Shown in pieces: positions 18,471 to 64,000 of a stretch of DNA of 64,000 nucleotides. Origin of the DNA: Psammoneis japonica (taxonomy: Eukaryota); the NCBI GenBank assembly GCA_008632985.1, contig QPGO01000020.1, forward strand, positions 496,001-560,000, read 5' to 3'. The notes under the pieces are model-generated. The model saw nothing but the letters and a program-made list of their open reading frames with translations. It ran no database searches and had not been told where the DNA came from. A program made the translations under genes and the position numbers. The first letter of the stretch is position 1. Each line of letters starts with the position of its first letter.

Positions 18471-18504
18471 CGGCACGGTGCAATGCCAATCAAGAAGCAC
18501 CGGG

Positions 18505-21916: not shown

Positions 21917-21999
21917 CGTGCAAAAGAGACACAGTGTCAACGGAGACGTTGGCGGTTGCTGTGGCGTGTGCAGTGGGGGGGGTGGGTGTTTCGTTCGTG

Positions 22000-22220
22000 A
22001 GTCGTCGTGTCGTGACGTGACGTGACGTGTCGTGACGTGTCGTGTCGTGTCTTGTCGTGTCGTGTCGTGTCGTGTCTTGTCGTGTCTTGTCGTGTCTTGT
22101 CGGATGCGACAAAAATTTGTCGTATCCGACAAATTTTGTCGGATGAATTTTCGTCGATGACATCGATCGCCAAATTCTGTCAATTGCCCCACTTGTTGAA
22201 ACGACATCGCCAAAGTGCAG
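22000..22220 (-). repeat. Right terminal/subterminal inverted repeat: (gtcgt/gacgt/gtctt)n pentamer array plus cgacaaattttgtcg palindromes
   Basis: Read directly; mirrors 16355-16520. Confidence 0.75.
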
Positions 22221-22384
22221 GTTGGTTGTTAATGACATTGATCATTTTGTGACTTAGTTGAACAATGTTTCTGTCCCGTTTATCGCCAACCCGGACATTT
22301 TGTCGCAATTCGCGTCTTTTCGTGACAAATCATCAATTCATTTAAGAAATTGTCGCCAAATGCGACAAAATGCCGTGTGTCCCT

Positions 22385-32600: not shown

Positions 32601-32699
32601 TTTTGACAGAACCTCCCTGAGCCAAGTGAGTGTGTGCCCAATGTCTTGTTTTGTGTGGAGACCATGCTGCAGCTGTGTTGGCTCATCTTCAACATTTGT

Positions 32700-35908: not shown

Positions 35909-35973
35909 CTGCACTCATCATTCTTGCCACTGTGTTTTCTGCACTCATCATTCTTGCCACTGTGTTTTCTGCA
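35909..35973 (+). repeat. Perfect 30-bp tandem duplication (ctgcactcatcattcttgccactgtgtttt x2)
   Basis: Read directly. Confidence 0.9.
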
Positions 35974-39333: not shown

Positions 39334-41567
39334 ATGGCCGGACCTGAAGGCTTGCTACTTACCAAGGGCAAGCGCAAATGGCGCGTTGGACGCCAGCTTG
39401 GCTCAGGTGCTTGTGGTACTGTACACGAGTTGAAGCCGAAGGACAGTACAGACAGAGACGACGAGATAGGGTACGTCGTGAAGATAGCTCCTGTCCCACC
39501 TGTCGCGGCAAACCCAAAAAAGAAGAAAACGGAAGCGCAAATGAACGCTGACCTCATGTACTACGAGAGCCTTGTGTACCATACACATCTCCCGTCGCTG
39601 CAGGGCAAGCTCATTCCTATGTTGCCTAGGAAAGACAAGTCGTCTCCTCCTTGCAACGGCGATGTCGATGGTAAGTCTTTTGTCAGGATCGGTACAGTAC
39701 TTGAAATCCCTATTGATTTGTTCAAGTCATCTCAACCATACCCTGAAACGCTCTATTAGGATATCGATTTCTCGTCATGGAGAGAATGGCTGGATCGCTT
39801 ATGGAAGCGGTTCCCTTGCTGATGAAGCAGCACAAGTCCAAGAAGAAGATTCCGTTTGGTCCCGTTGCTTGCGCACTCGTGACGTGCATTGAAGCTGTTC
39901 ACGATCAAAGGATGCTGTTTGTGGATGTCAAACCGGAGAACTTTATGCTTGCTCGCTCAGCCGTGACGCTAGAGAAGCGAATCCGAATGATTGATTTGGG
40001 ACTAGTCAAGCCAATCAGGGATACTTCGGGACAACACAAGCAGAATGAGGGCGGACAACTCGTTGGAACGCCTCTCTACTCCTCCCTCAATGCCCACCGA
40101 GGCGAGACGCTTAGCCGAAGAGATGATTTGGAAGCTCTCGGATACCTTATTGCTGAGCTACTCCTTGTTTTACTCCAGCAAGCTGTCCGTGGCTCCAAGT
40201 CGAAAAGCGAAGAAGTCTTTCCGTGGAGCAACGGGAAATCGGAAGACGATATTTTCCGTATCAAGCAAGCGCAAGTGACGGATCCAAAGTCAGATTTCTA
40301 CGCAAGTTTGAGTGTAGGTGGTAATGAGCATATCGCTAAATGCTTATGGTCGTATCTCAGTGAGATCTGGACTATCGGTTTCAAGAAGAAACCAGACTAC
40401 GGCTCGCTCAAATTTCATCTCAAGGGTTTGGACGTGCTCGTTGGAGCCAAGGCCTCCCTGAAGAATAACCCAAAGCGCGCTTCTGGACGTGCCGGCATTG
40501 CTACCGCCCCTATCAATGTAGATAGTGATTCAGAACCAGAGGAATCTGCCGCTAGGGTGACGCGACCTCGACGAGCTGCCAAGCGATCCTCTGGTCAAGA
40601 TCGCAGTTCCGAGCCTTCCAAATCTCGTCGCGTCGAGAAAGACGATAATAGCGAAGCTGAGGTGATCGCCATGGATATTTCAGATGAGGAAGAATCTAAA
40701 GATGTTGGCATGGAACTGGAAGAAGTCTCTGACGAGAACAATGCCCCTTCAAGTAACGCTGCCTCGGCTTCCGAATGCGGCGTCCTTCTTTTGGTATCCG
40801 AAGGACCGCATCTTGGCGAAACCTTTGTTCTTCAGTCCGGTACTACCGACACTGTTGTCCTCGGAAGCAACCCCCGATCCAGAAACGGAGGAAGATTCGT
40901 CTTGTCAAATGATTCCGACTTGGAGGCTTCTCATGTCAAGCTTGTTCTTGCTGCCGCCAAGAAAGTCTGTTCCGTTCGAGTCGTCGATCTCAAGTCTGGC
41001 GGAAGTACCTACGTGAATAGCACAAAGGTGGCGAAAGGAAAAGAACACCGGGCATTCATCAACGATGAAATTCACATTGGAGACACGACGCTAAAGATTC
41101 AACCCCTCAAGGCTGCTGCCGGGAAGCCGAGATCGAACCAAACGAAAGCGAAGAAAACTGCAGGTACACGGGCATCGTCGAAAAGCACGGCAAACAAGAA
41201 CCAATCATCTGCGACCAAGGTCAAGTCCGGTGGTCCCGGAGTCCGTCTCGTATTTATCGAGGGTCCGCACAAGGAGGAAGTGTACTCGCTCACACAGGGC
41301 GAGGTTGAAACAGTTGTGCTTGGGACCAATCCGAAAGTAAAGTCTGCTGAAACTTTTTGTCTTGCCGATGATGAGGCCGACGCATCGCATGTCAAGTTGG
41401 AACTTGTCGCAAGCAAGAACATGATCTCCGTACAAGTAACCGACTTGAAATCTCAGACTGGTACGTTTGTCAACGGGAAGCAGATTCCAAAGGGAAAGTT
41501 TCGCCGTGTCTTTATGAATGACACGATCCAGGTGGGAGATTCCGTCATCAAGGTCAGCCCCCTTTGA
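39334..41567 (+). CDS. Casein kinase 1/VRK-type protein kinase with two C-terminal FHA-like domains (exons 39334-39670, 39760-41567)
   Basis: LGSGACGTV, YVVK, GYRFLVMER across a GT-AG intron, DVKPENFM, IDLGL, GTPLYSS, SRRDDLEALGY; two EGPH..F.L...V.LG.NP..ASHVKL..DLKS..TYVN/TFVN repeats. Confidence 0.9.
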
Positions 41568-43745: not shown

Positions 43746-45308
43746 ATGATAGATCAGCAGGCAAATCGTCCAAGCGTCTTGTATGTCGAAAGCAAGAATG
43801 CCAAACGAATCAAGATCTTTCTGGAGAAACATGATTTGCTTCATAAGGACTTTCGTATGACAAAGATCGACACCACGACCTGGGATCTGGACAGCGATAC
43901 TGATCCAGCCGAATTATCAAAACGTTCTTCTGGGTTGATTGCTGTTCCAGTCGCATCTATTGAATCAGTATTCTCTGTGATAGAAGAGAATGCCGACTGC
44001 AAAAGCATAGTGGTTGCCACTGGGCGACAGGTTTGCCCGTACAGCACGGCGGTGTTGGGAAACCACAAGAAGCTTTCCACGACAGTAGTGCATAGCAGTG
44101 AGGCTGGAATGACAAGAACTCAGCAAGCGCTTATGGAGGCAATGCTCGATGTTCAAGCTAGGAACAACTCAAGCAAGCAAGATGATTTGATACAAAGAAT
44201 TACGAAGTTATCTGTTTCCACATGTCCTAAAAAGCTTGAGCTTCTGGGCGACGACAGAACATTGGTCCTACCTCAACGTGCCTTTTCTTTAAGAGACAGC
44301 GAATTCTTGTCATTGATTACGTTCTGTACCAAAATAAACGACAGGGACGACCCTCGGGTTGATGCGACCCTAACTGAGATATGGCGACAGTTGGCACATC
44401 TGTATGACAGCCCCCGAGTCGTGCGCCGCGGTGATATAGACCCTAATAGTCCAATTCGTGAGAGTGGGCATGTCTTACTCTGGCCTAGTGTCGATGACGC
44501 GTCGGATTGTTATGGTCCCAGTTCCCCTGGATGGATTACAGTCGCGGAACAGCGAATTCGACAGAGCTTTGATTTGACGCGAGTTATGTTCAGCAGAGGC
44601 AATATCACCGAGAAAATTCGATTTGGAAATGATCTGGTACAAGAGGGTGATTTGGTGCTGGATATGTACGCTGGTATTGGTTATTATACTCTTCCGGCCC
44701 TAATCAAGGGCAAGGCATCTCACGTTGTTGCTTGTGAGTGGAACCCACATGCTGCGTTTGCCCTAAAGTACAACCTTCAACAAAATGGTGTGGCGGATAG
44801 AGCAACAGTATACGTGGGGGATTGTCGGCATATCGCTCGACAACATGAGCTGGTCGACAAGTTTGATCGAGTCAGTCTTGGACTACTCCCGAGCAGCGAG
44901 GGCGGTTGGAGAACAGCTGTCAGGGCCTTGCGTCATGATACCGGAGGTTGGCTTCATGTCCACGGGAATGTACGAGATTCTGAAGTATCTCAATGGCAGC
45001 AATGGATGTGTTGTTGTCTTGGCGTTCTAGTTGGCAAGGACACTGCCAATCCAAATCGAGATGAGTGGATTATTCTTTGCAACCATGTTGAGAGGGTCAA
45101 GTCATACGCCCCCAAAATCCACCATTATGTAGCAGATATGTGGCTGGGACCGCCCAGAGAAGCTGTGAGAATAGACGCAGGTAACCACAAGCTATGGATC
45201 GCTCGAGATGGATGTTTTGTCCCTTGCCCCACTGAAGTCGAAAGCCCATCGTGTGCAATTAGTGCCTCCGGTGTATTGAACCAGAGTTGGATGATGGATT
45301 GCGGATAG
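43746..45308 (+). CDS. TYW2: tRNA wybutosine-synthesizing protein 2-like (Trm5/TYW2, Met-10+ family SAM-dependent transferase)
   Basis: GWITVAEQ.I..SFDLTRVMFSRGNITEK.R, VLDMYAGIGYYTLP, ACEWNPHA, DRVSLGLLPSSE.GW, GGWLHVHGNV, VKSYAP...HYVAD; the 5' end could have an upstream exon. Confidence 0.88.
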   Translation: MIDQQANRPSVLYVESKNAKRIKIFLEKHDLLHKDFRMTKIDTTTWDLDSDTDPAELSKRSSGLIAVPVASIESVFSVIEENADCKSIVVATGRQVCPYSTAVLGNHKKLSTTVVHSSEAGMTRTQQALMEAMLDVQARNNSSKQDDLIQRITKLSVSTCPKKLELLGDDRTLVLPQRAFSLRDSEFLSLITFCTKINDRDDPRVDATLTEIWRQLAHLYDSPRVVRRGDIDPNSPIRESGHVLLWPSVDDASDCYGPSSPGWITVAEQRIRQSFDLTRVMFSRGNITEKIRFGNDLVQEGDLVLDMYAGIGYYTLPALIKGKASHVVACEWNPHAAFALKYNLQQNGVADRATVYVGDCRHIARQHELVDKFDRVSLGLLPSSEGGWRTAVRALRHDTGGWLHVHGNVRDSEVSQWQQWMCCCLGVLVGKDTANPNRDEWIILCNHVERVKSYAPKIHHYVADMWLGPPREAVRIDAGNHKLWIARDGCFVPCPTEVESPSCAISASGVLNQSWMMDCG

Positions 45309-46099
45309 GTATGTTTTGCGTTCAATGCTTGGAATTCCCTGTCTAGCTAGATATCGGGCAGTTCAAGCTCGGCTCATTTGGGAAGTCTAGGTAGCTAGCC
45401 GCTCTGGTCGCCAGCTAGAGAGAGGGTAGCCCAATTGCCGGCGAGAGCTGCTACAGTAGGCTGGTGGAAAGAGCTAAAAGTTCTGTTGTACGAGCTCGTC
45501 GAATTCTTTTGCAAGAAAGCGCTCAACGCAGTCAAAGGGTATACTTCCAGTATTGGATCTAAGAAAGACCTTTTGACGTTGCTGGCTAATGTTAATATTG
45601 GAGAAGTTGTTTGTGCCGCTGACAAGATCGCTGGTATTGTGTTCTATCTTCTCTTCGCGTTGGAACCAAGAGAGCACCAGCAAGAAACATTGGCGGAGAA
45701 GAGCTTGAGGTACCAGGGGTTTCACGGTGTTGGCGGCGGTGGAAGTCCATCTTATCCCAACGATGCGCCAGTTCCAATTCGCAAAAGATCTAAACTCCAG
45801 CGGCTATTGCTAAATTGAAGAGCAGCGAAAATGACAAATCGAAGAAATGATGTGACGATATAACGGAAACTGCAAATCATTAGACCTTACAGGGGACTGT
45901 TGCCCGACAACTGCTGGCGTCATGCTAGCTAAGATAAAAGAGAATACCAGCATCTCATCTCTCTATTGTTTATAGTCCGTGTCAAATCTTTCAATTGGTC
46001 AGAGAAACTGCCTCCAGTGGAGCACAGATTGCTCACTACAACACACACTTTTTCACATTTACCCTCTCTTTCACATCATGCTAAGAATGAATCATCCTG

Positions 46100-48340
46100 C
46101 TTGACCCGCCGCCCCGCCCACGGACGCAGAGGTTGTGCTTCACGGTTGAAAGGCAGACAAACAAACAAACCATGTCGGCCGGCGCGTCCCTGACAGATGG
46201 AATGCAGTTTCAAGTGAATGAAGGCTCGTTGGGACTGCACTCACAACACCCTTGTTTGACCATTGTTCACCTCTGAGAAGTGGTCTTGGGCTTCTTTGTG
46301 GCAGAACAATTGTTCACCTCTGAGAAGTGGTCCTGGGCTTCTTTGTGGCAGGACAAAGGAGAGTTGATGAAGAGGAGGGCTGCTGGTGCTCTTTTTTTTG
46401 AGGAGGTGGTCAGTTTGTGCTCACAAAGCTGTGGCAAGGTGTGTGCACTGTGAGAAATTGAAAATGACACAGGGGAAAACAAACAGGTCATGAGATTTTT
46501 TCAAAATCACAGCAGTGCCCTTGGCCCTTGCAAACATGGCCCAGCAATTGTGTCGTGAGAGAGAAGCGCAAGATTCCAAGCAGCCAAATCAGCCTTGCCC
46601 TTGCATTTGGACAAATCTTTTCACCATCAATTCTGACCTGTCTGGTGATGCTGGCTGTGACACCTTTGTGATTGCTGCTGCACATCCAGACATGCAAGCC
46701 CACTCTGTCAAGAGCTGCAACAGTTGAGCCTCTGGGGCAGAACACGCCTCTGTGCCCTCTGTTGTCATCCGCAGCATCCAGTGCATGACACTCACATGCA
46801 AACCCTAACTTGGCTGAGTCTGCCAAGATCCACTGCTTCCTTTGGATGTTGCTGACAACTGCACCTTTTTGCTTGGTTTGGTGTCATCCAATGTTGTCTC
46901 ACTGACAAAATGCACTTCCTGTTGCCGAACAAACCTGACAGCACACCACACACCCCAGGTGGCCTTGTGACCCAAACATTCAACACCTGAGGCTGGCACA
47001 ATGACAGAATCTGTTGCCAGTGCTCCCTCCTTGCTGGACAAGTCAGACTTGCCACCAACATTTGCTCCACACTGGACAACTTCTGTGAACTGCACACCAC
47101 AGAACAAAGGGCAAGTTTACCCTCCCCCCTGGGCCCACCACCATGCCAGCATGCCAAGCCCACTTCAGGCACTCCAATGCAAGCTGAAGCCATCCAAGCA
47201 AACTGCCCTGAGCTGAACAGACAATGCTGGCACCCTCTGTTGCAAAAGCAAGCAATCTGCCACCACTGGTGTCATCAAGCAAGCTCCTGAGCTCCTGCAC
47301 TTCCAAGCAACATCCCCAGCACTCCTTCTGTTGGCTGCTGCCTGTTGCAGCATGATGGCTGCCTGGCACCAGGGCCCGCTGACACTGTCATCAATGATGC
47401 ACCCCAACTTCAGCCATTGTGCGATGTTGCCTTTTTGCATGATTTTCACAATCATTGTCTGCCGGCTCTGTCCAACATCACAACTTTCTCTGCATTGCAC
47501 AAAATGCCATTGCCCATGGAGTTGCCTCTTCTGCTGCCTCCTCCTCTGGCACACGCTGCACACCAACATTTTCTTGGTGCTTGGACCTGCCAACCTTGGG
47601 CCAGCACCCCCGCCAGGCCAACTTTGCATTTGGCTCTTTGGCCATGAGACCAACATCAATTTAACAAAATGCTCTGCTGCTTGCACCTTCAGGTGGAGCC
47701 AGCTGTGTGCAAGAACTTTGCTTGCTGCATCCTCGTTGGCGGCAGTTTTGCTTTTCTCCCCAATGCCCAGGTTCCGCCCACCACCAAGCCAAGAGCCTCC
47801 TCTCAACCATCATGTGTGTCTCAGCACTGCTGTGCTGGTGTGTGCCTTGCACTGCAGTGCATGTGCGTGTCACTGGAGCAGCCACACCACTCTAGATTTG
47901 GAGTGGAAAGGGACCAGCATTGTCAGCAAAGTCTTTCCATCCTTGCAATCTCAGCTCCCAAAGATTGTTTGCATGCCCAGATCAGAGCTGCAAGAGGTTG
48001 AACAAAGTGAAGCCAGTTTCTGGCCTCATCAAGACACCAGACAAAGGGAGATGCTTCTCATTGCCAGTTGAGCTTGCAGCCCCTGGCACCCCCCTCATCA
48101 CCAATTGACTGTGAGAGCAAGTTGGAAAACCAGCGCTGTCACTGCTCTCTCTCTCCTCTCTCTCTCTCACTCTTCTTTGGAAAAGCTTCTGAGCAGCAAG
48201 AAAGTCCAGCGGACAGGCCAAAAGTGCTCCCACCTCCTCTCACTCCCTCTGGCCATGCCATTCCAGCATGGGAATGGAAAGGGACCAACCACGTCAGCAA
48301 AGTCTTCCCATCCCTGCAAGCTCAGTTTCCTTGCGTGCAA
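46100..48340. other. TpA- and CpG-depleted decayed repeat block, with a 47-bp tandem repeat (46262-46356) and ~60-bp direct repeats (~47898 and ~48270)
   Basis: Composition and repeats read directly. Confidence 0.75.
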
Positions 48341-48760
48341 TTTCTACTCTCGCCACTGCTCTAGAGAGACCCAGATCACGGAAGAGGTCGAACGGTGGCA
48401 AACACGAAAGCGACGCCATTCGCTTTAAATGACTTCTTGAAACGCGCACTCATGCCGGTAATCCAACCCACACATCATCGCGAAGCAGCGCTGTCGCGCG
48501 TTCCACCCCGCCACTCCGCCCCGCCCATGCCAAGCAACAAAGATAGGCCCTACAGATCTCGAATCATCATCGCATTCATCGCATCTCGTCGATAAATTAC
48601 ACCCCGCTCATGTCATTGATTTGACGACGGGTAAACAACACTGACGGCGCAAAACTACCCTCCTGGCTGAGGCTGATCGACCGTCAATGCTTGCCGTAAA
48701 GATTGAAAACAGGCTGCTGGTTCAGAAGAGATATCTGGTGAAGGTACAAGCACCAACAAC

Positions 48761-51700
48761 ATGAAAAATTCCGACGAAGATGAATTTGAGGTTTTGCTGC
48801 ATGCCGCCCGCGTGTCTACTGTATCTGTCGATCCTGTGAAGGAAGAGGATCCTCAAGACAACGGAGATCTTGATGATACATGCCACAAAGTGAGTTCCAA
48901 AGAGGGTGATACTACTGCAACCGGCAGCAGCACTGCGTCTGACGAAGCAAATCAACACGACGAGCAACTTATTCAAGACCATGATCCCCGATCAAGCAGT
49001 AGGAGCTCCGCGGCATTTTGGTCGTCCATGCCCCGCAACGACGTCTCCAAGAAGGGCTTCATCACTATTGATAGTGACGACGACAGCAGCAGTGATAGTG
49101 ATGATGATGAGAGTATACAGGGACAGGACATCAAGAACAACGATAAGCCCAACCTCCAGAAAAAGAGTTCGTTTATTGCCGATATGGACGACGAGGCTTT
49201 TGAACAATTCCTACAAGAAGCCGCCCCACAAGACGCCCGCCCTAAATCAAAGGCACTCCGACACGAAAAGGACGTCGGTGACGAGGTTTATGCCAAGTTC
49301 ACCAACGGGCTGTGGTATTGGGGTAGGGTTGCGGAACGACACAAAGTCCCAGTTCCTGGGGCCAAATCCAGAAACGTTTATACTGTAAGTTGTTTGAGTT
49401 CTTATGAATGTTTCAATTCCGAATCGCACTCTTGTTTCAGTTGTTCTTATTCTCGTTGTGTTTTTATACTGTACTAGATTCGTTTTCATGACGGAGATGT
49501 CTTGGAGAATGTACGAGCCAAAGACGTGTGCACAAGGGCAGCTTTCGAACGACTACGACGAAAATTGGCGGGTCAGTCAGAAGAAGAAGAGAGAGGTGGA
49601 ATTGCTCAAGAGTGTCTTACCAAGTGCCAAGAAGCAACTACAAGACTTGTACAATCAGCGTTGCGACAACTGTGTCCTCTGTCTTGCACCCGATTGTCAA
49701 GCGTGCGAAACATGCTTAAAAAGCAGCAAGCATCACAACGGAACCCGCAAGTATGTTTGTCTGCAAAAGGTATGATATTTTCTATCGTCTGGGTATGGCG
49801 CTTCTCTGTCCCGCGAAGCTTTGTTTTTGCTTACGAGCACCCTTGTCTCTCTTTATACCAACTTTCTCAGATGTGTCTGGAAATAGGCGAGACCGACAGG
49901 GCCGTACCAGCACCCGGCTTTCCAGCGGGATGGAAGTTTTTCGTGTCTAAACCAGATTTTGACAAGAGGCAGGGGCTTGCCATTCTCGGTCCAGGTCGCC
50001 CAACGCAATACAGGTCTGTGGATGCGGCCAAGGGACATTACTCGACTCTCTTGCGATCCGTCATTGCCAATGACTTTTACAAGAAAATTGGCTTGGACTG
50101 TGCTGCTGCTACCAAAACGAGCGGTGTGGACAGCAAGAGGGATGAACCGGTCGACGTCACGACGGCCGAAGCCTTCATGACTCAAGTCGAGCAGCAGCTT
50201 CAAAGCTTTCACTTGAAAGGTTTGGAGTGCTCGTCGTGTGAGATGTGTCTCAGACAGGACTGTCAACAGTGCCTCGCATGTCTGAGCAACAAGAATAATT
50301 CGCATAGCAGTGATTCGAAGCTCGTTTGTATCCAAAAGGTACGCATTCATATCGATGAGAGTTAATTGACGACGATGTGTCGTTCCGATCTCATTGAAAA
50401 CAACACGGCGATGTACCCCAATGGGTTGCATGCTTTCGATGATGTTGCGACTAACTCTGACTATACATCCTTGTGTAGATTTGCTGTGACATTGACGAGG
50501 AGGAAAAGACCCTACCTGCACCGGGTCTTCCAGTGGGATGGTCGTTTAGGATTGAAAAACCTCGAACGGGAAATCGACCCAACATTGAGCTTATCCTTTG
50601 TGCTCCGAATGGAAAGCATTATTATTCGGTGGAAGCCGCCAAGAAGCATTTCGGCGTAATCTTGAATTCGATTCCTTCTCATTTGTTTTACAATTTTATT
50701 GGAATGGCAAAACGATCTCCGGACAGAATAGCGAGCGATGGTATGACCCAGCGATCTGGGAATAATAAAACGGGCGACCGCACTAATATCGATAGCAACA
50801 GTGCGCTACAGCGCTTTTATCAGGGTCGCTGCAAAGAGTGCAGTCTTTGTAAGCGGTTTGACTGCGGGAAGTGTGCTTCTTGTCGAAATCCTTCCAGCGG
50901 GGGAACGGCTGTTTGTTTGCAAAAGGTAAGGTGATCCATTGAATTTCGATGCTCGTCGACCACTTCAACTTACCAAATTGCGTTCGTTGCCCTAGATTTG
51001 TTGCGAGAATTTTCCTGAGCATGAGCGAGCTCTACCGATTCCTGGTTTTCCAGAGGGTTTCACCTTTGTGTTGAACAAACCAACAGGACGCGAAGGCGTA
51101 TTGGAAAGGCTTGTTCTTTTCATCAAGAAAAACAAACGTCTCCGTACCGTTAAAAACGCCAGAACCATGTGCCCCAGGAGCCTCGAAGGCGTGTCCCACG
51201 AGGCGTTTTATCGCTACATCGGCGCGGAATACAGCGACGAGTCCGATGAGGAGTCTTTCTATGAATCTATTCCTCAGCGGGCGGAACGAAAAAGGAAGCT
51301 ACACTCCCTGGATGGTGCTGATTCGAAGCGCTCCCGAAAAGGAGGCTCTAACGAGGGCTGTTTGATATCCTACAACTCGAAGAGCCCAAAGGAACTGCAT
51401 GAACGCAAGTGCGATTCCTGTGAGCTCTGCGTCAAATCAAAGTGCGGAGCATGCGCTTCGTGTGTCCGCAATCGGAGTCGTGATGATGGTAACAAGGAAG
51501 TCTGCCTCCGCAAGGTTAGTGGTGCTAGAGAAACGAATGGTTTGCTTCGTTCTTTTAGAAGTAGGGTTTTGATGGCTCATGTTATGTTCTGTTTTTCTTC
51601 CGCTATAGATGTGCTGCCGAATTCCGGTCGAAGAGAAGGCGCAACCCGCGGTTGGCTTTCCTGCTGGATGGCGCTTCTATTTCGACAAGCCAGAAACGTC

Positions 51701-53704: not shown

Positions 53705-55570
53705 CTAGTCGACCGCCTTGGCTTTCAACTCATTCATTGCAACAGCTTCGTAGGGTTCCTTCTTTTGGTGGGTGAAAACATATACAAGTAGAAGCATGCC
53801 GGTACCGACAACTCCTACTCCGGCTCCAAGCATGAGCTGAACATGATCCATCCAGTGAAACACCTTATCGGGTTCTCCGATGAAGAGGGTCGACATCATT
53901 CCAGTGTCCTCGTGAGCAAGGAAATGGCAGTGAAAAACCGTCTTTCCTGTATAATTCTTGTACTGAACCCAAACGCGAGCCCTACCATTCGGAGGGACCA
54001 CAACAGTGTCCCTCCATGCGTTTCGATCAAAGTCCAGTAAACCCGCAAGCACTGGGTATCTATCGGTGGATAGCTCAGACCCCATTTCTTTTACCTGAAA
54101 ACGATTCACATGAATGTGGAAGGGGTGGACATTGTGGTTGGCGTTGATTAAAACGTATTCAACCGCCTGTCCGGGGTGTGCCGAGAAATCCAAACGGTCT
54201 GGATCAAAAGAGCGACCATTCACAAAATATTGAGGAAAGGGCGCCTCGTTGCGATTGGCTCCCATGGAAAAGACAATAGTCTCTGTCTTATCAATCTGGT
54301 GTGCTTGAATGGCTTCATCTTCTTCGTATCCTGGGGTGAATACCATGTCTTCGATTGAAACGGTCGGGAGCTGCGTTCGGATCTTTGTGTCCACCGTGAT
54401 TGTGGCGAGAATTTGATCATGAGGATGACCCCACATGTCAAAGAACTGCATTCCCTGAATTCCTTGTTGAGAAATGACATACTTGCCCGGCTTGTCAAAC
54501 TGAAGCAAAATTTCCTCGCGCTGTCCACCCGCAAAGACAAGCATTGTATGCTTCTTTGGCTTTCGGTACGTGACACCATCCGAACCAATTACCCAAAACG
54601 GAATTGCAGATTCGTCCCAATGGTCGTCTTCCTTTCCTTCGGGGTAGACAATAAAGGTATTTTCATTCTCAATGGTCCCGCATAAGGCTCGTAAATGAAG
54701 AACTTCGCCAACGCCAACTTCAAAGCTCGGAGTGATTTCCCCATTCACCACAAACGGATGGATCTTGGATAGGGTCGTTTGTCCCATGAGGAACTCATCG
54801 ACTTCAAGGTTGTGTGTGGGTTTATCCACAGTCTTGAACACTGGATCCCAAATGACAAATTCTTGCGAGTTGGTAATGCCATACGTGGCAAGCTCGTCCT
54901 CCATAGGACCTTCGACATACAAAAGACCAAGCATTCCGCTCCAGATCTGGAGAGCCGTGGAGCCGTGTAAATGCGGATGGTACCAATACAGGCCTGTTGG
55001 GTGGTGATCTGGAATGTTAAACTTGTAGCAGTAGCACTCGCCTGGGCTGATGGCAATGTGTGGAGCTTCCGGGTTGTGCGTTCCGACGGGATCAAACATG
55101 TGTACTTCAATGTCTAGCCCGTGAAGGTGAAGGTTGGTGGCATCAAAGTTCTTGGCCATGTTTGGCCAGTCTACTTCCAGTTGTTCAGGATCCTCCACGG
55201 GCTTCTTGTAGTATTGGTACTTGATGTGTTCGCCAGGGTTCTCCACCATTTTCCAGTAATCCAAAGCCGTGGGTGGGTTGGGACCAATCGACTCTGTAAT
55301 GTTGTTCTCCAGCTTGATCCAAAGCGACTGCCCAGGTTTCACCCGCATGGTTGGCCCCATAAAAGAATCCGATCCTTCCTCAGAGTATGTGCGCCCCTTG
55401 TACGTGTAATTCAGCATTTTCATGATTCGAACGGACATGGCAAGGTTGTAGTTGACGTCGCCCCCATTGCAAGGATCCGAGCACGGGATGAAACCCGTCT
55501 CGTCACCCACGGCATGCTTCACAAAAGACACTAGCGAGAGGAGAATAACGTTGCAGGAACTTATACGCAT
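53705..55570 (-). CDS. Multicopper oxidase with signal peptide and C-terminal TM anchor
   Basis: All four Cu motifs: NLHLHG, WYHPHLHG, HPFHIH, HCHFLAHEDTGM; N-terminal MRISSCNVILLSLVSF; hydrophobic C-terminal helix. Confidence 0.93.
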   Translation of the reverse strand: MRISSCNVILLSLVSFVKHAVGDETGFIPCSDPCNGGDVNYNLAMSVRIMKMLNYTYKGRTYSEEGSDSFMGPTMRVKPGQSLWIKLENNITESIGPNPPTALDYWKMVENPGEHIKYQYYKKPVEDPEQLEVDWPNMAKNFDATNLHLHGLDIEVHMFDPVGTHNPEAPHIAISPGECYCYKFNIPDHHPTGLYWYHPHLHGSTALQIWSGMLGLLYVEGPMEDELATYGITNSQEFVIWDPVFKTVDKPTHNLEVDEFLMGQTTLSKIHPFVVNGEITPSFEVGVGEVLHLRALCGTIENENTFIVYPEGKEDDHWDESAIPFWVIGSDGVTYRKPKKHTMLVFAGGQREEILLQFDKPGKYVISQQGIQGMQFFDMWGHPHDQILATITVDTKIRTQLPTVSIEDMVFTPGYEEDEAIQAHQIDKTETIVFSMGANRNEAPFPQYFVNGRSFDPDRLDFSAHPGQAVEYVLINANHNVHPFHIHVNRFQVKEMGSELSTDRYPVLAGLLDFDRNAWRDTVVVPPNGRARVWVQYKNYTGKTVFHCHFLAHEDTGMMSTLFIGEPDKVFHWMDHVQLMLGAGVGVVGTGMLLLVYVFTHQKKEPYEAVAMNELKAKAVD

Positions 55571-55819
55571 CTCTTTTGCTCTTCTACTGTACGAGTCAAG
55601 GTTCAGTGTCGACAACGCGAAGCATGAAAGTGATGAAGGCAGAAGATACAAATTATCGAGATCGCGGAGAAATTTGGAAATTGGATTCAGAAAAGAGCCG
55701 AGCATTCGGGGGTATCCCCCCATCCATACCCCTAATATTATGTTTTTTATATGCTTTAATTACTTTTATCTTCTTTGGGACAAATAATTTATACCCGTAC
55801 TCCTATTTTTCGCTCGTCG

Positions 55820-58800
55820 CGCCACCTGCCGATTTCTCTGTTTCCCGCCACCGCGTCATCGCGTGCTCCTGCATTCTGTGTGTTTGCATCAATCTTCCTC
55901 CTCCCTGTTCTTCATGGGAAGAAACGGTGTCTGGACAAGTAGGGAGTGAGTTGAGTAGGGCCATGCGAGCATTCATTCTGTTCTTTTGCCTCTCCACAAC
56001 AATTGAGAAGGAGCAGCAGCACAATTTTTGTGTCAACATTGGGGGGACGCGGCTTGAGGCTTGAACAAAAAAGTTGGTGCAAAGAGTCGGGCAGCGGGTT
56101 GTTGGGAGGTGGTTTTTTGCATTTCATCCAGAGTTCATCATGCATGGGCAACATTGCGGCTGGGCGGGGGGTTGCAGATTTGCACTGGGATGGACACAGT
56201 CAGTTGCACAGCGATGCCATCCGAGCAAGGACGACGGACGACAGTCTGTTTTCAGTTTGCAGCTTCAGGATGCGCGCAACATGTGGAGTCAGCCCAGTTC
56301 ACCGCAACATCGTCGGGAGTTCGCTGCAACAAGGTCTCGGCGAAAGTCCAGCATGAGAAACAAGGGGCGCTGTTTGTTCCATGGTTTTGTCAAGCTGCGC
56401 GCCATCAACGATGACATTCCCAGCTGTGTCTGCCGCTTGGCTCTCCCAACAAAAGACCACATGTTGAATGGACTGCTCAGGTGCATGTGCCACAATCGTG
56501 GAGCAAAAGTGGCAGCACGGTTTTGGTCAATCGCAAATGGATGTTGGATGAAACATGTCGGGAACAACAAAAAATGCTTGCTCTCTGGCTTCCCCTCTCA
56601 GGACTGGAGCTGAGTCCAAGGCCATCACTCACGTCAGTTTCATCACGTGTGACTGGGTGTCGTTTCCGAGGATGCAGCATTCGGTTCGAGGACTTTCTTG
56701 TCATGCCAGAAAATGTGTCTATGAAACGTCCATCTGAAGATTCCTGTGCCGCAAAGTGTTCCACAAAGTGCAAGGAATGATCGGGTTTGGAGTGAATGTT
56801 CACCCGACTTTTCCTTGGAGCACGAATGGACTTAAAATGGAGAGTTTTGACCCGCGCAACTCGACATGGAAGAAAGATGATTTTCTCCATGGTCACTGCT
56901 CTTCTCAAGACTGGGAACAACCTGACAGTGGGATGTGCGATGGCGCTTCCGAGAATCATGCTCCCTGTTGTTTGGACGTTTTCTCTTGTCACCCGAGCAC
57001 TCATCGACAAAGAGGCATTCATTCGAAGGCTGGCCAGCAATCTGTTGCATGACACTTGTGAAGTGATTGCGCTGCAAGCGCTGGTTGCAACACTGGAGGA
57101 GCCTTGATTCATCTGAATGCACATGAATCGGCAACCATCCAGAAAGTTCCGGCAAAACTGGCAAACGCGACAGTCTCAAAATGCCTTCGGATGGTGTGTG
57201 CGGTCCCAAGGCAGTCGACTCCGTCAACTCATCAAGCAAGTGCATGTTGGAGGTTTCATGTTTATTTGGAATGGCAGTCACCTGAACGAGCGGCTGCCAT
57301 TGGAGACATTTTGGAAGGCTTCCGATTCTCGAAAGCTGCACGTCACGTTCGAGCTCCGCTTTGGTCAGCCGCCGGCTTCTTTTCCTCCCCTCGGAAGTCT
57401 TCCATGTCATTCAAGCTCGGCCCATGGCTTCCATTGGAACTGTGCGGGTAGAGTGATTGCATCTCATGGTTTGTTGGTGCATCATGGATGTGATTGATTT
57501 TGAAAAGCATCGTGAACTGTGTGTGGTCTTTCGAGCGCTGAGATTTTGGCGTTGCAAGCAAGGTTTGTGTGACTGCGCATTTATCGTAGAAACGCACAAG
57601 GGTGTCGCACCACAATCTTCTTGTCAAAATGTCCGATCGCCAAAAATGGTGTGTTGTTCAAGGCATGTGCACAACGAGCACACAGCAGCGCAATGTCAGA
57701 CAGACGACAGTCGTGCATTTTTTGTGATTTGCGCGACAAATTGCCGTCGACGCCGATGATGACGATGACATTTTTCTCAAGCTCGTGCAGGACGACTTTG
57801 AAATGGGCACTCATCACAATGATCGATTGCACCATTTAGAACACGTGTGTGTAAAGAAAGTCCCCCTGACGAAGTCTCAATCGTTCAATGATGAATGCAC
57901 AACAGTGACAGGTCAGAAAACAGAGCTCGGCATTGGCGTGACGTTTTGCTTTCGAACGGAGATTGCTCTCGGGGACTGTCATGACTGAGTGCATTCTCAA
58001 ACTCAACAAACTAAATGTCTGCAATGACAAAAGACTCTGGGACATGTCGCTGTCATCGCTGTTGTCATGACAACGCACGTGTCATGTCACCGATTTTCAG
58101 GGATGATGCGTGCAGCGCGCACGAAGTTTCCAGTGCAAAAAAAATTCAGAAAGTCCAATCATCTTGCCATCCATCAGCTCGTTGTGCGATTGCCTTAACC
58201 GAAACTGTGTGAAGCATTTGAAAACCAATTGGTTCCTCCTCTCTAAGGTGGAACTCTCTGCTTTTGAAGTCTGAAACCGAAAGATTTTGGATTGCCGCAC
58301 TCACTGCTGTCAGAAAATGGAGGCGTGATGATTGCTTGCACCAATCATTTTGCTGCATTTTTTTACCTGTCAAGTGAGTTTTGCACCGGGCGTCCAAACC
58401 AATTTTAATGCACAATGGTTGTTCTTTCGAAACAGGGTGCCACTGTGCGGCACGCACTTCTGCACGACCCACGCGACCTGACTAATGTGCGTTGGGGCCA
58501 GAGCAGTGCGTGGTGCTGGTTGTTTTGCTTCTGACCGTTCTGTCTTCTGTGAGGTTTCACGAGTTAACTGTGCATGTTGATGTTGTCTAATTCGAGGTGC
58601 GGTGGCTTGAGTGAAAGTGCAAGTGTGCGAAATTTATGCATTGATGCAGTTGTCTTTGCAAAACAGCCAGCAGTTGTGACTTGCACCCATTCCATCATTT
58701 CTGTCCATGCTCGATCCGCGGTGGCTCAAGTGAAAGTCCAAGTGCACGAAATTTACGCATTGATGCAGTTGTCTTTGCCAAATGGTCAGTTGCAGCTTGC

Positions 58801-59760
58801 GCCCATTCCATTGTTTCTGCCCGTGCTTGCTCCACAGGATCCTTGCTTGCTCCTTCTCCTGCTCCGTTGCTCCCGCTTGTTCCAGCTCCTCCTCGGTGAA
58901 AAATCTCCCACCAGTCTGTGGTGGTGCTGCCGCCCACACTGCCTTTAGCTCCTCCATGGTTGAATCATCCCTGGGCACGACCGTTGCTTCCACACGACAA
59001 CCGTCCACTCTCGTGTTGTCTGGCACAAGTGCAGATGAGACATCACAATTTCCTGAAGCAAGCTCGAACGCCGCTCTTGCTTCTTCCACCGTGATCTTCT
59101 CCCCGTCTTCTTTGTTCATTGCTGACTGAAACAGTTCCGCATCTGTCTGCACCCTTTTCTTGTCTTCTCCAGTTTTCTTTGGCTCATCTGACTTCTTTGT
59201 TTGTTGTTGCAAATCCATTTTTTTTCTCTGTTGCTCCGTTTTGTGCGACGTTTGCGTTCACGTGCTCTTGGTTTGTTGGAGTCATGGCAACTGCCGCCGC
59301 AGTCATGCCTTCAGCGCCCGTGAGTTCTCCCGCAACTTCCGGAGCTGCTTTGCCAGACGGAACGATGTTCTCCTCCGCCATTCTGACGCCGTGATGACAG
59401 AGGTGTGCTGACTGCTGTGTGCTGTGTTCCAGGCATTGGCGATCCACATCCTTCTGTGCGCACAAACGTGTGACACTTCGTGCCGAATTCGACGTGCCCA
59501 ACGCACCCCACCTGCCGCTCCCGAGTTCCTCAACGGCCTGCCTCCACCACTTGTGAAGTCGCCGGGACGTGGCGTGTCTGCACCTGTGTGCATCCGTCTG
59601 CACTGCGTGCTGCGGCACTGCTGCACAGCACCCCGCATCAAAACTTCATCAATGTTTATTTTTTGCTTTCGATTCCTTTTCTCTTCTTCTTCTGGCTGAG
59701 AGGAACTGCTGGACAGCCTGGGTGTGTCCAAAAAAAAAGAAACACCGATGAAAATTGTGA
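55820..59760. other. TpA-depleted decayed repeat/TE-like region, unidentified
   Basis: TA scarce while CpG is largely retained; fragmentary protein-like frames. Confidence 0.6.
58599..58833 (+). repeat. ~119-bp tandem duplication
   Basis: gcggtggct..agtgaaagt.caagtg..cgaaattta.gcattgatgcagttgtctttgc twice. Confidence 0.9.
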
Positions 59761-59768
59761 TCACCCCG

Positions 59769-62700
59769 TGTTGGAAAATGGTGAATTAAAAGTTCAAACA
59801 CCGAAATTAGATGGCGCAAAGAAGACGCATGCGTCAGCGCTCATGTGCTCTGCGTGAGGCACTGAAACTGCCAATGAAAGCAGTCATTGTTCTCTTTCAA
59901 CTCTCAGAAAGTATTGTGATAACAAGCTTGTCTATTTTAGCCTCAGGATCAGACCTCAGAGGACTGAGGTGGCTCTGAAATGGTTGCCAGAAGGATGAAT
60001 TACAACAGTTAAAAGAGAATGATCCAGCTGAGAGCTGTGAAAAGAAAGTAAGAAAGAAAAGAGTCATTCTCACGGTGTGTGAGATATTTTGCTGCTTTGC
60101 CTTTTTGTCATGAGTGGAAGAGGCAAAGGCAGAAATGGCAATAGAAGCCAAGGAAGAGGACCCTCAGGAAGGGGCAACAAGAGTGGCAAGCAAAGCAACA
60201 AGGGCATCAATGATCATGTCTGTCACGTTGGAAGTGCCAAGCAAGCATCTGATTTTCAGATTGCTGCTGAGTTCATCATCAACCACATTGAGAAGACTTG
60301 TGAGTTTGGAAATGACATTGCAACTGCACTCAACACTTTCACTCCATGTGACATGAGTTCTAAGAAGCCGACTTTGCAGGTCAGCTTGACTGGAGATGAC
60401 AAGGTGGACGTGCCATTGAACAAACAGCATGAAATTGAGTTCAAGACAGAATTTGATGCTCACATCAAGAGGACCCAAACTCATGAGAACAACCTCATCA
60501 AGGCTTGTGCTTTGCTCTGGGAGAGATGCTCCAAGGCCATGAAGAACAAGATTCAAGCAAGAACCGACTTCCAAGCCAAAATTGAAAATGATCCTGTCGA
60601 ATTGCTCAAGGCCATTAAGGAGCATGCATTGAACTGCCAAGAGCACAGGCATGACATGGCTGTCATCTCAGATTCAATGAGAGCAGTGCTAGAAACCAAG
60701 CAGAAGGAGAAGGAGAGTCTCCAAGATTGCACCAAGAGATTCAGGGTTGCAAGGGACATCATGAAGTCTCACATTGGAGGACCAATTGTCCTCACCAAGG
60801 CAGTGCAAGGCATGTCAGAATGTGACGAGCACAATGCGGATGCCATCAAGAAGTGTCAAGAAAAGGCGTTCAGCCAATTGATGGGTTACATGCACTTGGA
60901 GAATGCAGACCAGCGCAAGTGTGGATCAATTCTAACAGGATTGAACACTCAGCAGTCCCTCAAGAACGACCAATGTCCCAAGTCTATTACGGAAGCCAAC
61001 ACGGTGTTGAGCAACCACACTTTTGACTGCGTTGGTCAGCCTGACAACCACCGTAACAGGAACAATCAAAACAACAACTCTGACTCCAAGAAACAAGAAG
61101 AAAACCAAGAAATTGCGCTGTCCTTCACTCAGTTAGAAGGCAAGTGTTGCTGCTGTGGCAAGGCTGGACACAATTCCAAAAATTGCTGGGAAAGGAAAGG
61201 AAAACCTCAAGCAGAATGGGCCATCAACAAGGCCAAAGCCAAGCAAGAAGCAAGCAACACTCAAGCAAGTGACGATGCCAGCACAGCCAACTCTTCCACC
61301 AAAGAATCCACTGGAACAAAATCTGCTGTTTCAGGATGGGCTGGCACGCACATCGATGCATCTCTCTGCCAGGATCAATCTGGCAGCATGAGAGACTGGA
61401 TTTTATTGGACAACCAGTCCACAACCACAATCTTCTGCAATGAGAAGCTCGTTGCAGACATCCGTCCGTCGGATGAAGCCATGCGTTTGCACACCAATGG
61501 CAGAGTCCTAGTCACGACACACAAGGCCACGGTGCCAGGGTTTGGTGAGACTTGGTTTAACCCAGATGCAATCACCAACATTTTTGCTTGCTCTGACATG
61601 AAGAAGAAGCACAGAATCACAAGTGATTCTAAGCAAGACAATGCATTCACCGTTCATCTCCCCAACAAGAAGGTTGGGTTCGAGGAGGACGGAAAAGGGC
61701 TGCACATTTACAAGCCCAAGATTAACGACACTGGAGCTCAGCTCCAATTTGTGCAGAGTGTGGAAGAGAACAAGAAGTTCTACACTCCACGACAGTTCAG
61801 AAAGCCAAGAGGGCTAGGGAACTGTTGCACGCATTGGGAAACCCAACCGTGAACGATCTGAAGGCCATCATTCGCATGAACAGCATCAAGAACAATCCCG
61901 TCACAACGGAGGACGTAGATTTGGCCGAGAAGATTTTTGGACCAGACATTGGAAGTCTAAAAGGCAAGGTGACAAGGCAGAAGCCAGACCCAGTTGTAGA
62001 AGACTGCACAGAGATCCCGAAGGAGCTCATTGCAGCACAGCACAAGGTCACTCTTTGTCTGGACAGCCTCAAGGTGAATGGATTGCCATTCCTCACCACA
62101 GTGTCACGAAACATTTTTCATCGCACGGCACAACCGCTCAAGGACTTGACCCAACCAACTCATCAAGAAGCTCTGGAAGATGTGCTGCGAGTCTACAACA
62201 AGGCCGATTTGAAGGTCACACGCATTCATTGCGACAACGAATTCAGGCCCATTGGGAATGCACTAGAAGACAAGTTTGATCTCAAGGTGAGCTGCGCAAA
62301 TGCTCAGGAGCATGTCCCACAAGCCGAAAGAAACAACCGAGTTATTCAAGAACGTGCCAGGGCAGTCTGTCATCAGCTGCCATTCAAGCATCTGCCAAAA
62401 CTCATGGTCGAAGTCATGGTCACCGAAGCTGCTAAGAAGCTCAATTGTTTTCCAGCCAAGCACGGCGTTTCCAAACATTGCAGTCCAAGAATGATTCTCC
62501 ATCAAAAGAATCTAGACTGTGACAAGAGCTGCAAGATCACGTTCGGCACTTGTGTGCAAGCTCACAACGACCCGGACCCCAAGAACACCCAAGAGTCACG
62601 GACCTTAGATTGCATTTGTTTGCACCCCACTGACAGCAACCAGATTGGACATGAGTTGCTGCACTTGCAAACCGGCAAGAAGATCACTCATCGCAAGGTC

Positions 62701-64000
62701 ACCCCTGTGCCCATCACTCCCGCCATCATGAAGCAGGTTCATCGTTTGGCTGAAATGAACAAGATGCCCAACGGTCTCAAGATTCAGAGCCGCACTGGAG
62801 CTGTTTTGTATGACAGTGCTTGGCTTGCAGGAGTGGATTATGATGAAGATCAATTTGAAGACGAAGGTTGTGATCTAGAAGAAGACATTGAAGGCTGAAG
62901 ACGATGAGGAAGAAGAGCTAGACTGGGGAGACTATGACAGAGTTAGTCAAGAAGAGCTGCAAGACACAATTCGGGAACAAGAATTGGATGAAGAAGCCAG
63001 CTGCATCAGTTAACAACAAGACGAGACTCAAGAAGAAACCTCCAATGATGAGCATCTCGGAGACAATGACGAAGTTGGTTCTCAACCATCAGACGGCAGC
63101 GGAATCTCACAAGAAATCGATGACATGATTGACCACATTGATGAACAACAGAGGCTGGAACAAGAGAAGGAACACTCTCCGGAAGTGCAAGAGATCATCG
63201 ACGAAATGAAAGACCTGGAATCTGATGACGAATCTGGAGAGGAGCAGAGTGAAACCAAAGAAAGTGTCCAAGAAGAGCCTGTTGCTACATCCAGGGCAGG
63301 AAGGACTCTCAAACCTCCAGTTAGATTGGGAGACTGCCAATGCCATCTGCAGACTCAAGCCCATTCACAAGAAGAAGCGTGCAGCTTGGAGACGGCCAGA
63401 ATCATGGCCATGACAATGTGCCAGTGGAACGAAAAGGTTAGCATGATTTCCACTGATGAAGAAGCACACCAATTTATTCAGACTTGCAGCTTGGCACGAG
63501 GACTCCAGAAGTTTGGAGAAGAAGGCCACAAGTCGGCAGTGTTAGAGCTGAAGCAAATCCATGACAGAGTGGTTTTCAAACCCATTCACATCAAGGACAT
63601 GACTCCACTGGAGAGGAAGAGAGCCATGGAGAGCCTCATGTTTCTCACAGAGAAGAGAGATGGACGAATCAAGTCAAGGTTGTGTGCAAACGGAAGCACG
63701 CAACGAGAGTGCATGGACCGAGATGAAACCGCCAGTCCGACAGCATCAACAGAATCCATTCTCATTGCAGGAGTGATCAATGCCAAGCAAGGCAGAGACG
63801 TCATGACGGCAGACATTCCAAACGCATTTGTGCAAACGGACATCGAGGTCAAGGATGAAAAGATCATCATGAAGATCCGTGGAAGGATGGTGGACATGTT
63901 GCTGGAATTGGATCCAGACACTTGCCAGGACTGCGTCGTGTGCGAAGGCAAACACAAGGTTCTCTACGTTGAAATGTTGAAGGCACTCTACGGAATGCTG
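59769..64000 (+). mobile_element. Ty1/copia (CoDi-like) LTR retrotransposon running off the window; putative 5' LTR from TGTTGG at 59769
   Basis: Gag, zinc knuckle, protease, integrase, RT in copia order; the LTR boundary is tentative because the second LTR is not in the window. Confidence 0.9.
60110..64000 (+). pseudogene. gag-pol polyprotein, frameshifted (~61800, ~62890), with pervasive Tyr->Cys/His
   Basis: CCCCGKAGHNSKNC; WILLDNQSTT; LCLDSL / IHCDNEF / HVPQAERNNR; IKSRLCANG, VMTADIPNAFVQT, LKALYGML. Confidence 0.92.

Follow-up and report, generated by a model that had tools for sequence, protein, structure and literature searches.

We examined a 64-kb stretch of the genome of the diatom Psammoneis japonica (contig QPGO01000020.1, positions 496,001 to 560,000), here called the window and numbered from its own first base, at the end of which an initial annotation had described a Copia gag-pol element with tyrosine (Tyr) systematically replaced by cysteine (Cys) and histidine (His). 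We found that the dinucleotide TpA has almost disappeared from five sharply bounded blocks, where TpG and CpA are in excess, and that these blocks hold the Copia retrotransposon, a relic of a PIF/Harbinger-type DNA transposon, a chaperonin pseudogene and unclassified repeats. The losses fall on both DNA strands, they follow the base 3′ of the TpA, and a repeat with one copy inside and one copy outside a block gives their direction. We consider it probable, at roughly 0.75, that these blocks of transposon and pseudogene DNA, and not the DNA around them, have undergone a TpA to TpG/CpA hypermutation that acts at the DNA level on both strands and has the same signature as the one reported from the chlorarachniophyte Bigelowiella natans.

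TpA-poor blocks in the window

The analysis covered this one 64-kb window, and the block limits were set by the positions of TA. Dinucleotide contents are given as observed/expected ratios (o/e).

13447-24486, no strand: block A, 11 kb; TA o/e 0.12, CG 0.71
26570-28043, no strand: block B; TA o/e 0.09, CG 0.35
29969-36978, no strand: block C, 7 kb with 7 TA; TA o/e 0.02, CG 0.21, TG 1.76, CA 1.92
46083-48344, no strand: block D; TA o/e 0.07, CG 0.21; depth in contigs of the public DNA sequencing run X1 close to that of a single copy
55957-64000, no strand: block E, containing the Copia element and open at the window end; TA o/e 0.14, CG 0.64, TG 1.54, CA 1.51

Together the five blocks sum to ~29.8 kb, about 47% of the window, and contain 179 TA (6.0 per kb), whereas 1287 TA (37.7 per kb) were counted in the remaining 34.1 kb. 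Bins of 500 bp held 0-10 TA inside the blocks and 12-36 outside, and the longest TA-free gaps, 2805 and 2152 bp in block C, compare with a median gap of 20. TA o/e was 0.02-0.14 in the blocks against 0.55-0.61 outside, with TG and CA o/e reaching 1.5-1.9 in the blocks, and the block edges were sharper than about 100 bp. Every gene with a clear Pfam domain (TRM5, kinase-FHA, multicopper oxidase and RpiA) lies outside the blocks. The earlier reading, centred on the Copia element, was thus right in its core but too narrow in scope, since the same loss extends over five blocks, which also take in the relic of a DNA transposon and a pseudogene of a host gene.

Loss of tyrosine in the Copia element

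Three open reading frames (ORFs), defined from stop to stop under the standard code, make up the Copia element within the window.

60083-61852, plus strand: Copia-type gag-protease ORF, 589 amino acids (aa) from stop to stop, with a zinc knuckle at aa 355-363; 3 Tyr
61726-62898, plus strand: integrase-region ORF, 390 aa, in another frame than both of its neighbours; 3 Tyr
63014-64000, plus strand: reverse-transcriptase (RT) ORF (RVT_2), 329 aa, open at the window end; 2 Tyr

The low Tyr counts pointed out in the initial annotation were therefore recovered in these stop-to-stop ORFs, in which Cys (23, 15 and 10 in the gag-protease, integrase and RT ORFs, respectively) and His (22, 19 and 10) are far more numerous. 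For comparison we used 79 related loci from metagenome contigs, aligned to the window ORFs by query-anchored tblastn, from which two hypermutated loci were excluded, leaving 77 relatives. A column was called a consensus-Tyr column when it was covered by 20 or more relatives and 60% or more of these had Tyr.

In the 32 consensus-Tyr columns of the Copia ORFs, the window reads Tyr 5 times, Cys 15, His 6, phenylalanine (Phe) 3, and serine (Ser), leucine and valine once each. Other consensus residues were retained in 365 of 442 columns, compared with 5 of 32 for Tyr (Fisher p=6.9e-15), so that the replacement of Tyr is far commoner than that of other residues, as had been proposed. The gag-protease ORF has 13 of these columns (6 Cys, 3 His, 2 Phe, 1 Ser and 1 Tyr) and the RT ORF has 6 (4 Cys and 2 Tyr). 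When the integrase ORF was aligned with 30 database homologs using MAFFT, its 13 Tyr columns read Cys 6, His 3, Tyr 3 and Phe 1, and 165 of 198 other columns were retained; its Tyr content is 0.77%, against a median of 4.38% among the 120 homologs listed.

All eight sequence motifs quoted in the initial annotation were present, each with Cys or His at a Tyr column of the relatives, and this includes the zinc knuckle, whose replaced aromatic residue at position 356 is such a column. Intact relatives thus carry Tyr at these positions, and the objection that Cys and His might be ordinary in homologs fails. The occurrence of both Cys (15) and His (6) in the 32 columns bears out the suggestion that TAY codons (Y, pyrimidine) were turned into TGY and CAY through changes on both DNA strands.

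Over the whole Copia element, TA o/e was 0.17, with TG at 1.56 and CA at 1.53. Since 77 of the 79 related loci have a TA o/e of 0.50-0.88, this loss of TpA is not a trait of the family.

Dependence on the 3′ neighbour

The survival of TA in the blocks, relative to the rest of the window, differed strongly with the flanking bases: it was ~1.0 for TTAA, 0.45 for CTAA and 0.31 for CTAG, and fell to 0.04 for GTAC and 0.03 for both ATAT and ATAC. A per-strand model in which loss is set by the 3′ neighbour only, with survivals of 0.93 before A, 0.55 before G, 0.20 before C and 0.15 before T, fits all 16 NTAN classes (chi2 16.9 with 12 degrees of freedom, df), as opposed to a uniform loss (chi2 262.7, df 15). 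Within the Copia element, retention measured against the 77 relatives was 0.70 for YTAR (R, purine), 0.22 for YTAY, 0.12 for RTAR and 0.03 for RTAY, and the two sides combine multiplicatively. Survival there was 0.31 on the sense and 0.17 on the antisense strand, a comparison that is under-powered (locus L021, described below, was likewise considered).

The same rule was seen in the conserved Tyr codons, where all 5 survivors are preceded by a pyrimidine and none of the 12 codons that follow a purine has survived. Tyr codons preceded by a pyrimidine gave 11 Cys and 3 His (p=0.057). Such an excess of Cys would be expected if the altered base were the A of T-A-Y, to which a T of R-T-A on the opposite strand is equivalent. 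Tyr is the conspicuous casualty, with Cys exceeding His, because TAY is itself the Tyr codon. The initial annotation had called the element nearly saturated at TpA; the TA o/e of 0.17 agrees with this, but the loss is uneven and the survivors are almost all in the slowly changing YTAR contexts.

Direction of the change in repeated and duplicated sequences

Copies of the same sequence within the window were compared with each other, both inside and outside the blocks.

12386-12937, plus strand: unmutated copy of an unclassified repeat, outside any block; 16 TA, 32 CG
22439-23032, plus strand: mutated copy of the same repeat, inside block A; 0 TA, 11 CG
32716-34101, plus strand: old tandem duplication of ~750 bp, inside block C
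37683-38913 and 43746-45059, inverted: duplicates of a TRM5/TYW2-type tRNA methyltransferase gene, outside the blocks; ~93% identical over 1218 aligned bases

In the repeat pair, the copy in block A reads TG four times and CA six times against 14 TA of the copy outside (13 of them aligned to bases), while the reverse, TG or CA in the outer copy against TA in the inner one, was found 0 times. CG had changed in the same sense, with 9 TG and 7 CA in the copy in block A and only 2 reverse cases.

The two duplicates in block C differ by 24 CA/TG doublets among 111 mismatches, of which 83 are transitions. This supports, as far as the two copies can tell, that each of them resolved ancestral YpR steps independently, and thus a mutation in place and copy by copy. 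These doublets are not assignable to TA specifically, because they may go back to CG as well as to TA. As a control, the TRM5/TYW2-type duplicates, which are unmutated and have normal TpA, showed 2 such doublets among 83 mismatches. The two TRM5/TYW2-type copies flank a kinase-FHA gene (39747-41567).

One further site is in block D, at single-copy depth, where the window has CA at 47191-47192 and the run-X1 contig covering it has TG. One ancestral TA (or CG) may here have been resolved in different ways in two haplotypes or strains, a hint at a process that was active after their divergence.

A DNA transposon relic and a pseudogene in block A

Two further recognisable sequences were identified in block A, on the opposite strand to that of the Copia ORFs.

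16722-18005, minus strand: relic of a PIF/Harbinger-type DDE transposase (DNA transposon), 428-aa ORF with 0 Tyr
13931-15817, minus strand: cpn60/GroEL-type chaperonin pseudogene; three weak PF00118 pieces of 23-31 bits (cut-off 34.3)

The Harbinger-type relic had no Pfam match of its own at E<=0.01, and its assignment comes from its 54 homologs, among which PF13359 (DDE_Tnp_4) is present in 40. At its 5 consensus-Tyr columns the relic reads His twice, Cys twice and alanine once, while other columns were retained in 102 of 139 cases (p=0.0018). The cpn60 pseudogene is scattered through all three frames with several frame changes; its 3 consensus-Tyr columns read His, Cys and Cys, and 199 of 314 other columns were retained. 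It adjoins the Harbinger-type relic, and both a gene fragment captured by a transposon and a dead duplicate are possible. Block A also contains a (GTCGT)n microsatellite of ~20 units at 22004-22102.

When the 121 block ORFs of 100 aa or more were searched against Pfam, the only matches besides the three weak pieces of cpn60 were a few at chance level. No family was recognisable by Pfam in blocks B, C and D or in the region from 56 to 60 kb, and neither a bounding long terminal repeat nor a terminal inverted repeat was found for block C.

Identity and copy number of the Copia element

The order of domains expected in Copia elements, gag (with zinc knuckle), protease, integrase and RT, with the integrase upstream of the RT, is present in the window. 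The RT ORF matched PF07727 (RVT_2) with E=6e-7 and 29.8 bits, below the gathering score of 31.6, as is expected because of the heavy missense mutation. No Pfam match at E<=0.01 was obtained for the integrase ORF, which was identified from its position and its homologs. It has 201 database homologs (E<=1e-3) with at most 61% identity, those with a name being from the diatoms Attheya, Epithemia, Nitzschia and Fragilaria, and two homologs (P0025 and P0093) are annotated as PF07727 or reverse transcriptase. With the gag-protease ORF as tblastn query, matches were found in 67 of the 79 related loci. On this sequence evidence the element is a Ty1/Copia-type retrotransposon of the order gag-PR-IN-RT (PR, protease; IN, integrase), with diatom sequences as its nearest relatives, in agreement with the Copia gag-pol identity first given to it. 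The same ORF order is found within one frame in 42 of 54 relatives, whereas the parts of the window copy are in frames 2, 1 and 2; the copy carries at least two frame breaks. A motif search for a primer-binding site upstream of gag yielded 21 matches against 21.9 expected, which is chance level; the 3′ end of the element is outside the window.

From 57.3 to 64 kb, the summed depth of run-X1 contigs was 1400-3200, against ~50-140 in the flanks, and the Copia family is therefore multi-copy in run X1. Over this multi-copy part the run-X1 contigs differ from the window at ~1500 places, with 252 A>G, 290 G>A, 263 C>T and 243 T>C, and ~45-63 for each transversion; TA-, CG- and other contexts are all found among these places. 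The ~4 kb upstream of gag (56000-60080) are also TpA-poor and multi-copy, with a near-normal CpG (o/e ~0.8) and no recognisable protein domain, and may be either a second element or a part of the Copia element. A plausible 207-aa ORF lies within this region on the minus strand (58637-59257), and a tandem duplication of ~119 bp upstream of the Copia element (58599-58833) coincides with the peak of run-X1 depth (~3200).

Stop codons, long ORFs and CpG

In the blocks, TAA and TAG together were counted 258 times against 1389 TGA, and outside them 1079 times against 1261. A change of TA to TG or CA deletes TAA and TAG and creates no stop (at most TAA becomes TGA), and therefore many long but meaningless ORFs are found in the blocks. 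Hence the long ORFs of the Copia element, which had been taken as a sign of intactness, are a by-product of the loss of TAA and TAG, and the parts of the element are, as described above, out of frame with each other.

Nor could we uphold the argument that CpG is still present and the element consequently young, since its CpG is about half depleted, with an o/e of 0.46 compared with about 0.6-1.3 in most relatives. Among the blocks, CpG o/e is low in B, C and D (0.21-0.35) but higher in A (0.71) and E (0.64), and the depletions of TpA and CpG are separable for this reason. The superimposed loss of CpG is most simply, and probably, explained by the decay of 5-methylcytosine in methylated transposons; methylation of diatom transposons has been described (PMC9998398). 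Because CpG decay gives the same products, the excess of TG and CA and the CA/TG doublets in blocks B, C and D are not assignable to TA alone.

The same signature in other data sets

The two related loci excluded above both show the signature. L021 has a TA o/e of 0.13, and its 18 consensus-Tyr columns include 4 Tyr, 10 Cys and 1 His; in L075 TA o/e is 0.32, with 6 Tyr, 6 Cys and 3 His in 17 such columns. Moreover, Tyr-poor database homologs with 0-0.95% Tyr were found from other sources, namely P0027 and P0028 (integrase) and P0439 and P0432 (DDE transposase). To judge from these homologs, both types of transposon have hypermutated copies elsewhere among environmental diatom-like sequences. 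A run-X1 contig of 822 bases (depth 52) covers 46902-47722 in block D with 4 other letters and 1 gap. Given L021 and L075, the Tyr-poor homologs and the block D contig, a basecalling artefact or a trait of the lineage is therefore unlikely.

Possible mechanism and alternative explanations

The targets include a DNA transposon, a pseudogene and blocks that run through several elements without a gap, and the process must therefore act on chromosomal DNA. The mutator would work in place and on both strands, changing A:T to G:C at the A of T-A with an efficiency that is highest for T-A-Y, lower for TAG and by far the lowest for TAA. It would be confined to transposon and pseudogene blocks, sparing the neighbouring genes and intergenic DNA. 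In coding sequences it would remove Tyr (TAY to TGY, Cys; R|TAY to R|CAY, His) along with other TA-bearing codons, and the elements would be inactivated through their missense load while their ORFs remain open. In some blocks a decay of CpG to TG and CA, probably by deamination of 5-methylcytosine, would be overlaid. The chemistry is probably that of an enzyme that deaminates adenine to inosine, a base read as G, as could be expected from a TadA/ADAT2-like deaminase; silent chromatin or small RNA seems the most likely means of targeting, and genome defence would be the role. Perhaps, then, diatoms have a natural system in which an adenine deaminase, guided to DNA by chromatin or RNA, recognises T-A-Y and erases TpA from silenced transposons on both strands, a defence similar to the repeat-induced point mutation (RIP) of fungi but of opposite chemistry. 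We put this forward tentatively and would rate it slightly below an even chance. Such a defence may be old and shared among stramenopiles, alveolates and rhizarians (SAR), because the same signature is found in a rhizarian.

Several points weigh against the hypermutation that we propose. The evidence consists of end products only; an enzyme, a modified base and a de novo event are not among the observations, and the products expected from a deamination of A in T-A-Y would equally arise if T were modified in R-T-A. The excess of Cys over His after a pyrimidine is borderline, and the cpn60 test relies on 3 columns of a noisy alignment, in which 63% of the other columns are retained. In blocks B, C and D, the depletion of CpG gives the same TG and CA products as the loss of TpA. 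The window may itself derive from run X1, whose platform is unrecorded, so that the agreement of this run with block D is weak support against an artefact. The blocks were mapped in one 64-kb window. Finally, as regards the trigger, the repeat copy at 12386-12937 and the TRM5/TYW2-type pair are untouched, and block D is at single-copy depth. To judge from the escape of this repeat copy and this duplicate pair, a trigger by pure homology, as in RIP, is not supported.

The foremost alternative, which we regard as unlikely, is a chemistry directed at thymine, in which a TET/JBP-type oxidation or another modification of the T in R-T-A in silenced DNA leads to mispairing with G and to T to C changes. 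Hydroxymethyluracil in dinoflagellate DNA favours TpA and TpC steps; for diatoms no evidence of such a base was found, but none was looked for either. Mathematically, the survival model does not distinguish T-A*-Y from R-T*-A (the asterisk marking the altered base), and both give the products observed. On the other hand, oxidised thymine is generally weakly mutagenic in comparison with inosine. The authors of the B. natans study also favour adenine deamination, with a homologue of ADAT2 (10.64898/2026.01.13.699255).

Editing in the course of retrotransposition, either of the RNA (A-to-I, ADAR/ADAT-like) or of the complementary DNA (cDNA; APOBEC3-like) before integration, would suit a retrotransposon such as Copia, whose family is multi-copy in run X1, and a preference for a 5′ U is common to ADAR-type editing (discussed in 10.64898/2026.01.13.699255). 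We nevertheless consider it very improbable, since the same loss is seen in the Harbinger-type relic, an element without an RNA intermediate, as well as in the cpn60 pseudogene and the unclassified repeats. Moreover, both strands were hit within one element, and the blocks run continuously over different sequences, block A for 11 kb. The 3′ preference found here (Y > G >> A) also differs from the 3′ G preference of ADAR. Editing of the ADAR or APOBEC type was accordingly rejected as a candidate, as it fails with both the DNA transposon (the DDE_Tnp_4 relic) and the two strands (15 Cys and 6 His).

A sequencing or assembly artefact seems more improbable still. Modified bases in silenced DNA might lead a long-read basecaller to read TA as TG or CA; systematic miscalls at modified motifs do occur in assemblies made from long reads only, and the platforms of both the window assembly and run X1 are unrecorded. 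However, the same signature is present in other assemblies (L021 and L075) and in the proteins P0027, P0028 and P0439, and the run-X1 contig at depth 52 matches 822 bases of block D with 4 differences. In its frame breaks and its many ordinary substitutions the Copia element resembles a copy that has really decayed, and miscalls on opposite strands would not yield clean, saturated TG or CA. Least likely of all is an effect of composition or selection (a donor low in TpA, or selection against TpA, for instance to escape a nuclease that reads TA or insertion at TTAA): TpA is mildly under-represented outside the blocks too (o/e about 0.55-0.61), but conserved Tyr of catalytic domains were replaced, contrary to selection on the protein, the relatives have normal TpA, TTAA is the best-surviving context, and mutated and unmutated copies of one repeat are found in the same window.

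Genes beside the blocks

A multicopper oxidase gene is encoded on the minus strand at 53705-55759, and its best named matches are from the raphid pennates Fistulifera (71%) and Seminavis (66%), which marks the window as nuclear DNA from a pennate diatom. Beside block D, an ORF on the plus strand (49478-50365) showed a weak match to the CXXC zinc finger (PF02008, E=1.3e-4, below cut-off), a type of domain that reads unmethylated CpG; no evidence links this ORF to block D.

Comparison with known systems

The fungal RIP of Neurospora and others resembles the process described here in that saturating transitions, specific for a dinucleotide and on both strands, are introduced into transposon DNA in place, are sharply limited to repeats and leave relics of skewed dinucleotide composition. 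They differ in their chemistry, as RIP changes C to T at CpA and thereby makes TpA and stop codons, whereas here TpA is destroyed by A:T to G:C changes and no stops are made. Fungal RIP itself was rejected as a candidate, TpA being depleted and not enriched (258 TAA and TAG against 1389 TGA in the blocks). ADAR and APOBEC3 likewise cripple retroelements through clustered transitions made by a deaminase, and ADAR shares the preference for a 5′ U or T; theirs are RNA or cDNA substrates and one strand, while here a DNA transposon and a pseudogene were hit on both strands, and not by G to A changes.

In the substrate of TadA and ADAT2-3, A34 follows the invariant U33 and is followed by C in bacterial tRNA-Arg. 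This U33-A34-C35 core resembles the T-A-Y preference found here, but the natural enzymes act on tRNA loops and not on kilobases of chromosomal DNA. If our interpretation is true, there would possibly be a natural enzyme that deaminates adenine in chromosomal DNA, an activity so far known mainly from engineered base editors, and the T-A-Y rule offers a handle for the enzyme search.

The Copia element itself is similar to the diatom Ty1/Copia elements (CoDi groups) in its gag zinc knuckle, in the integrase lying upstream of RVT_2 and in its diatom relatives. At the level of search terms, no mention of such mutation was found in Maumus et al. 2009 (PMC2806351), PMC3145265 or PMC9998398, and no diatom report of TpA hypermutation was found in the literature searched, which omits most subscription journals. 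For diatom genomics, the blocks mean long spurious ORFs, since TAA and TAG are missing, and transposon proteins that drop below the Pfam thresholds (here the Harbinger-type relic, the integrase ORF and RVT_2), and their excess of TG and CA may be mistaken for CpG decay alone.

The closest known system is that of B. natans, in whose mutation-accumulation lines 231 of 302 nuclear mutations were located in two integrated viral regions, 230 of these 231 being A to G or T to C and all at TpA, according to the 2026 preprint of Mettrop et al. (bioRxiv 10.64898/2026.01.13.699255). The same preprint reports that TpA-depleted coding sequences enriched in CpA and TpG are enriched in reverse transcriptase and DDE domains, and it proposes an ADAT2 homologue or adenine deaminase as the enzyme, citing DNA editing by ADAT2. 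The two cases agree in the change of A:T to G:C at TpA, giving TpG and CpA (here in 10 of 14 TA of the repeat pair with 0 reverse cases, and in the 21 of 32 Tyr columns that read Cys or His), and in its clustering in and restriction to foreign or selfish DNA, here in five sharp-edged blocks with the Copia element, the Harbinger-type relic, the pseudogene and the repeats.

They differ in the organism, a chlorarachniophyte rhizarian there and a stramenopile diatom here, and in the target, which is integrated viral DNA there and ordinary transposons and a pseudogene here. The loss is near-saturated here (TA o/e 0.02-0.17), against 0.45 in the nucleocytoplasmic large DNA virus (NCLDV) region of B. 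natans, and de novo events were measured there, whereas only end products are seen here. The 3′-neighbour rule (TAY > TAG >> TAA) is found in the window, while the main text of the preprint mentions neither flanking context nor diatoms. Our finding is therefore best filed as a TpA hypermutation of selfish DNA in a new major lineage, in which it is near-saturated, follows a 3′-neighbour rule and affects both retro- and DNA transposons. If this is true, diatoms would be the second lineage, and the first among stramenopiles, with a targeted TpA to TpG/CpA mutator acting on selfish DNA, and genome defence by mutation, as known from RIP, would be a broader theme among eukaryotes.

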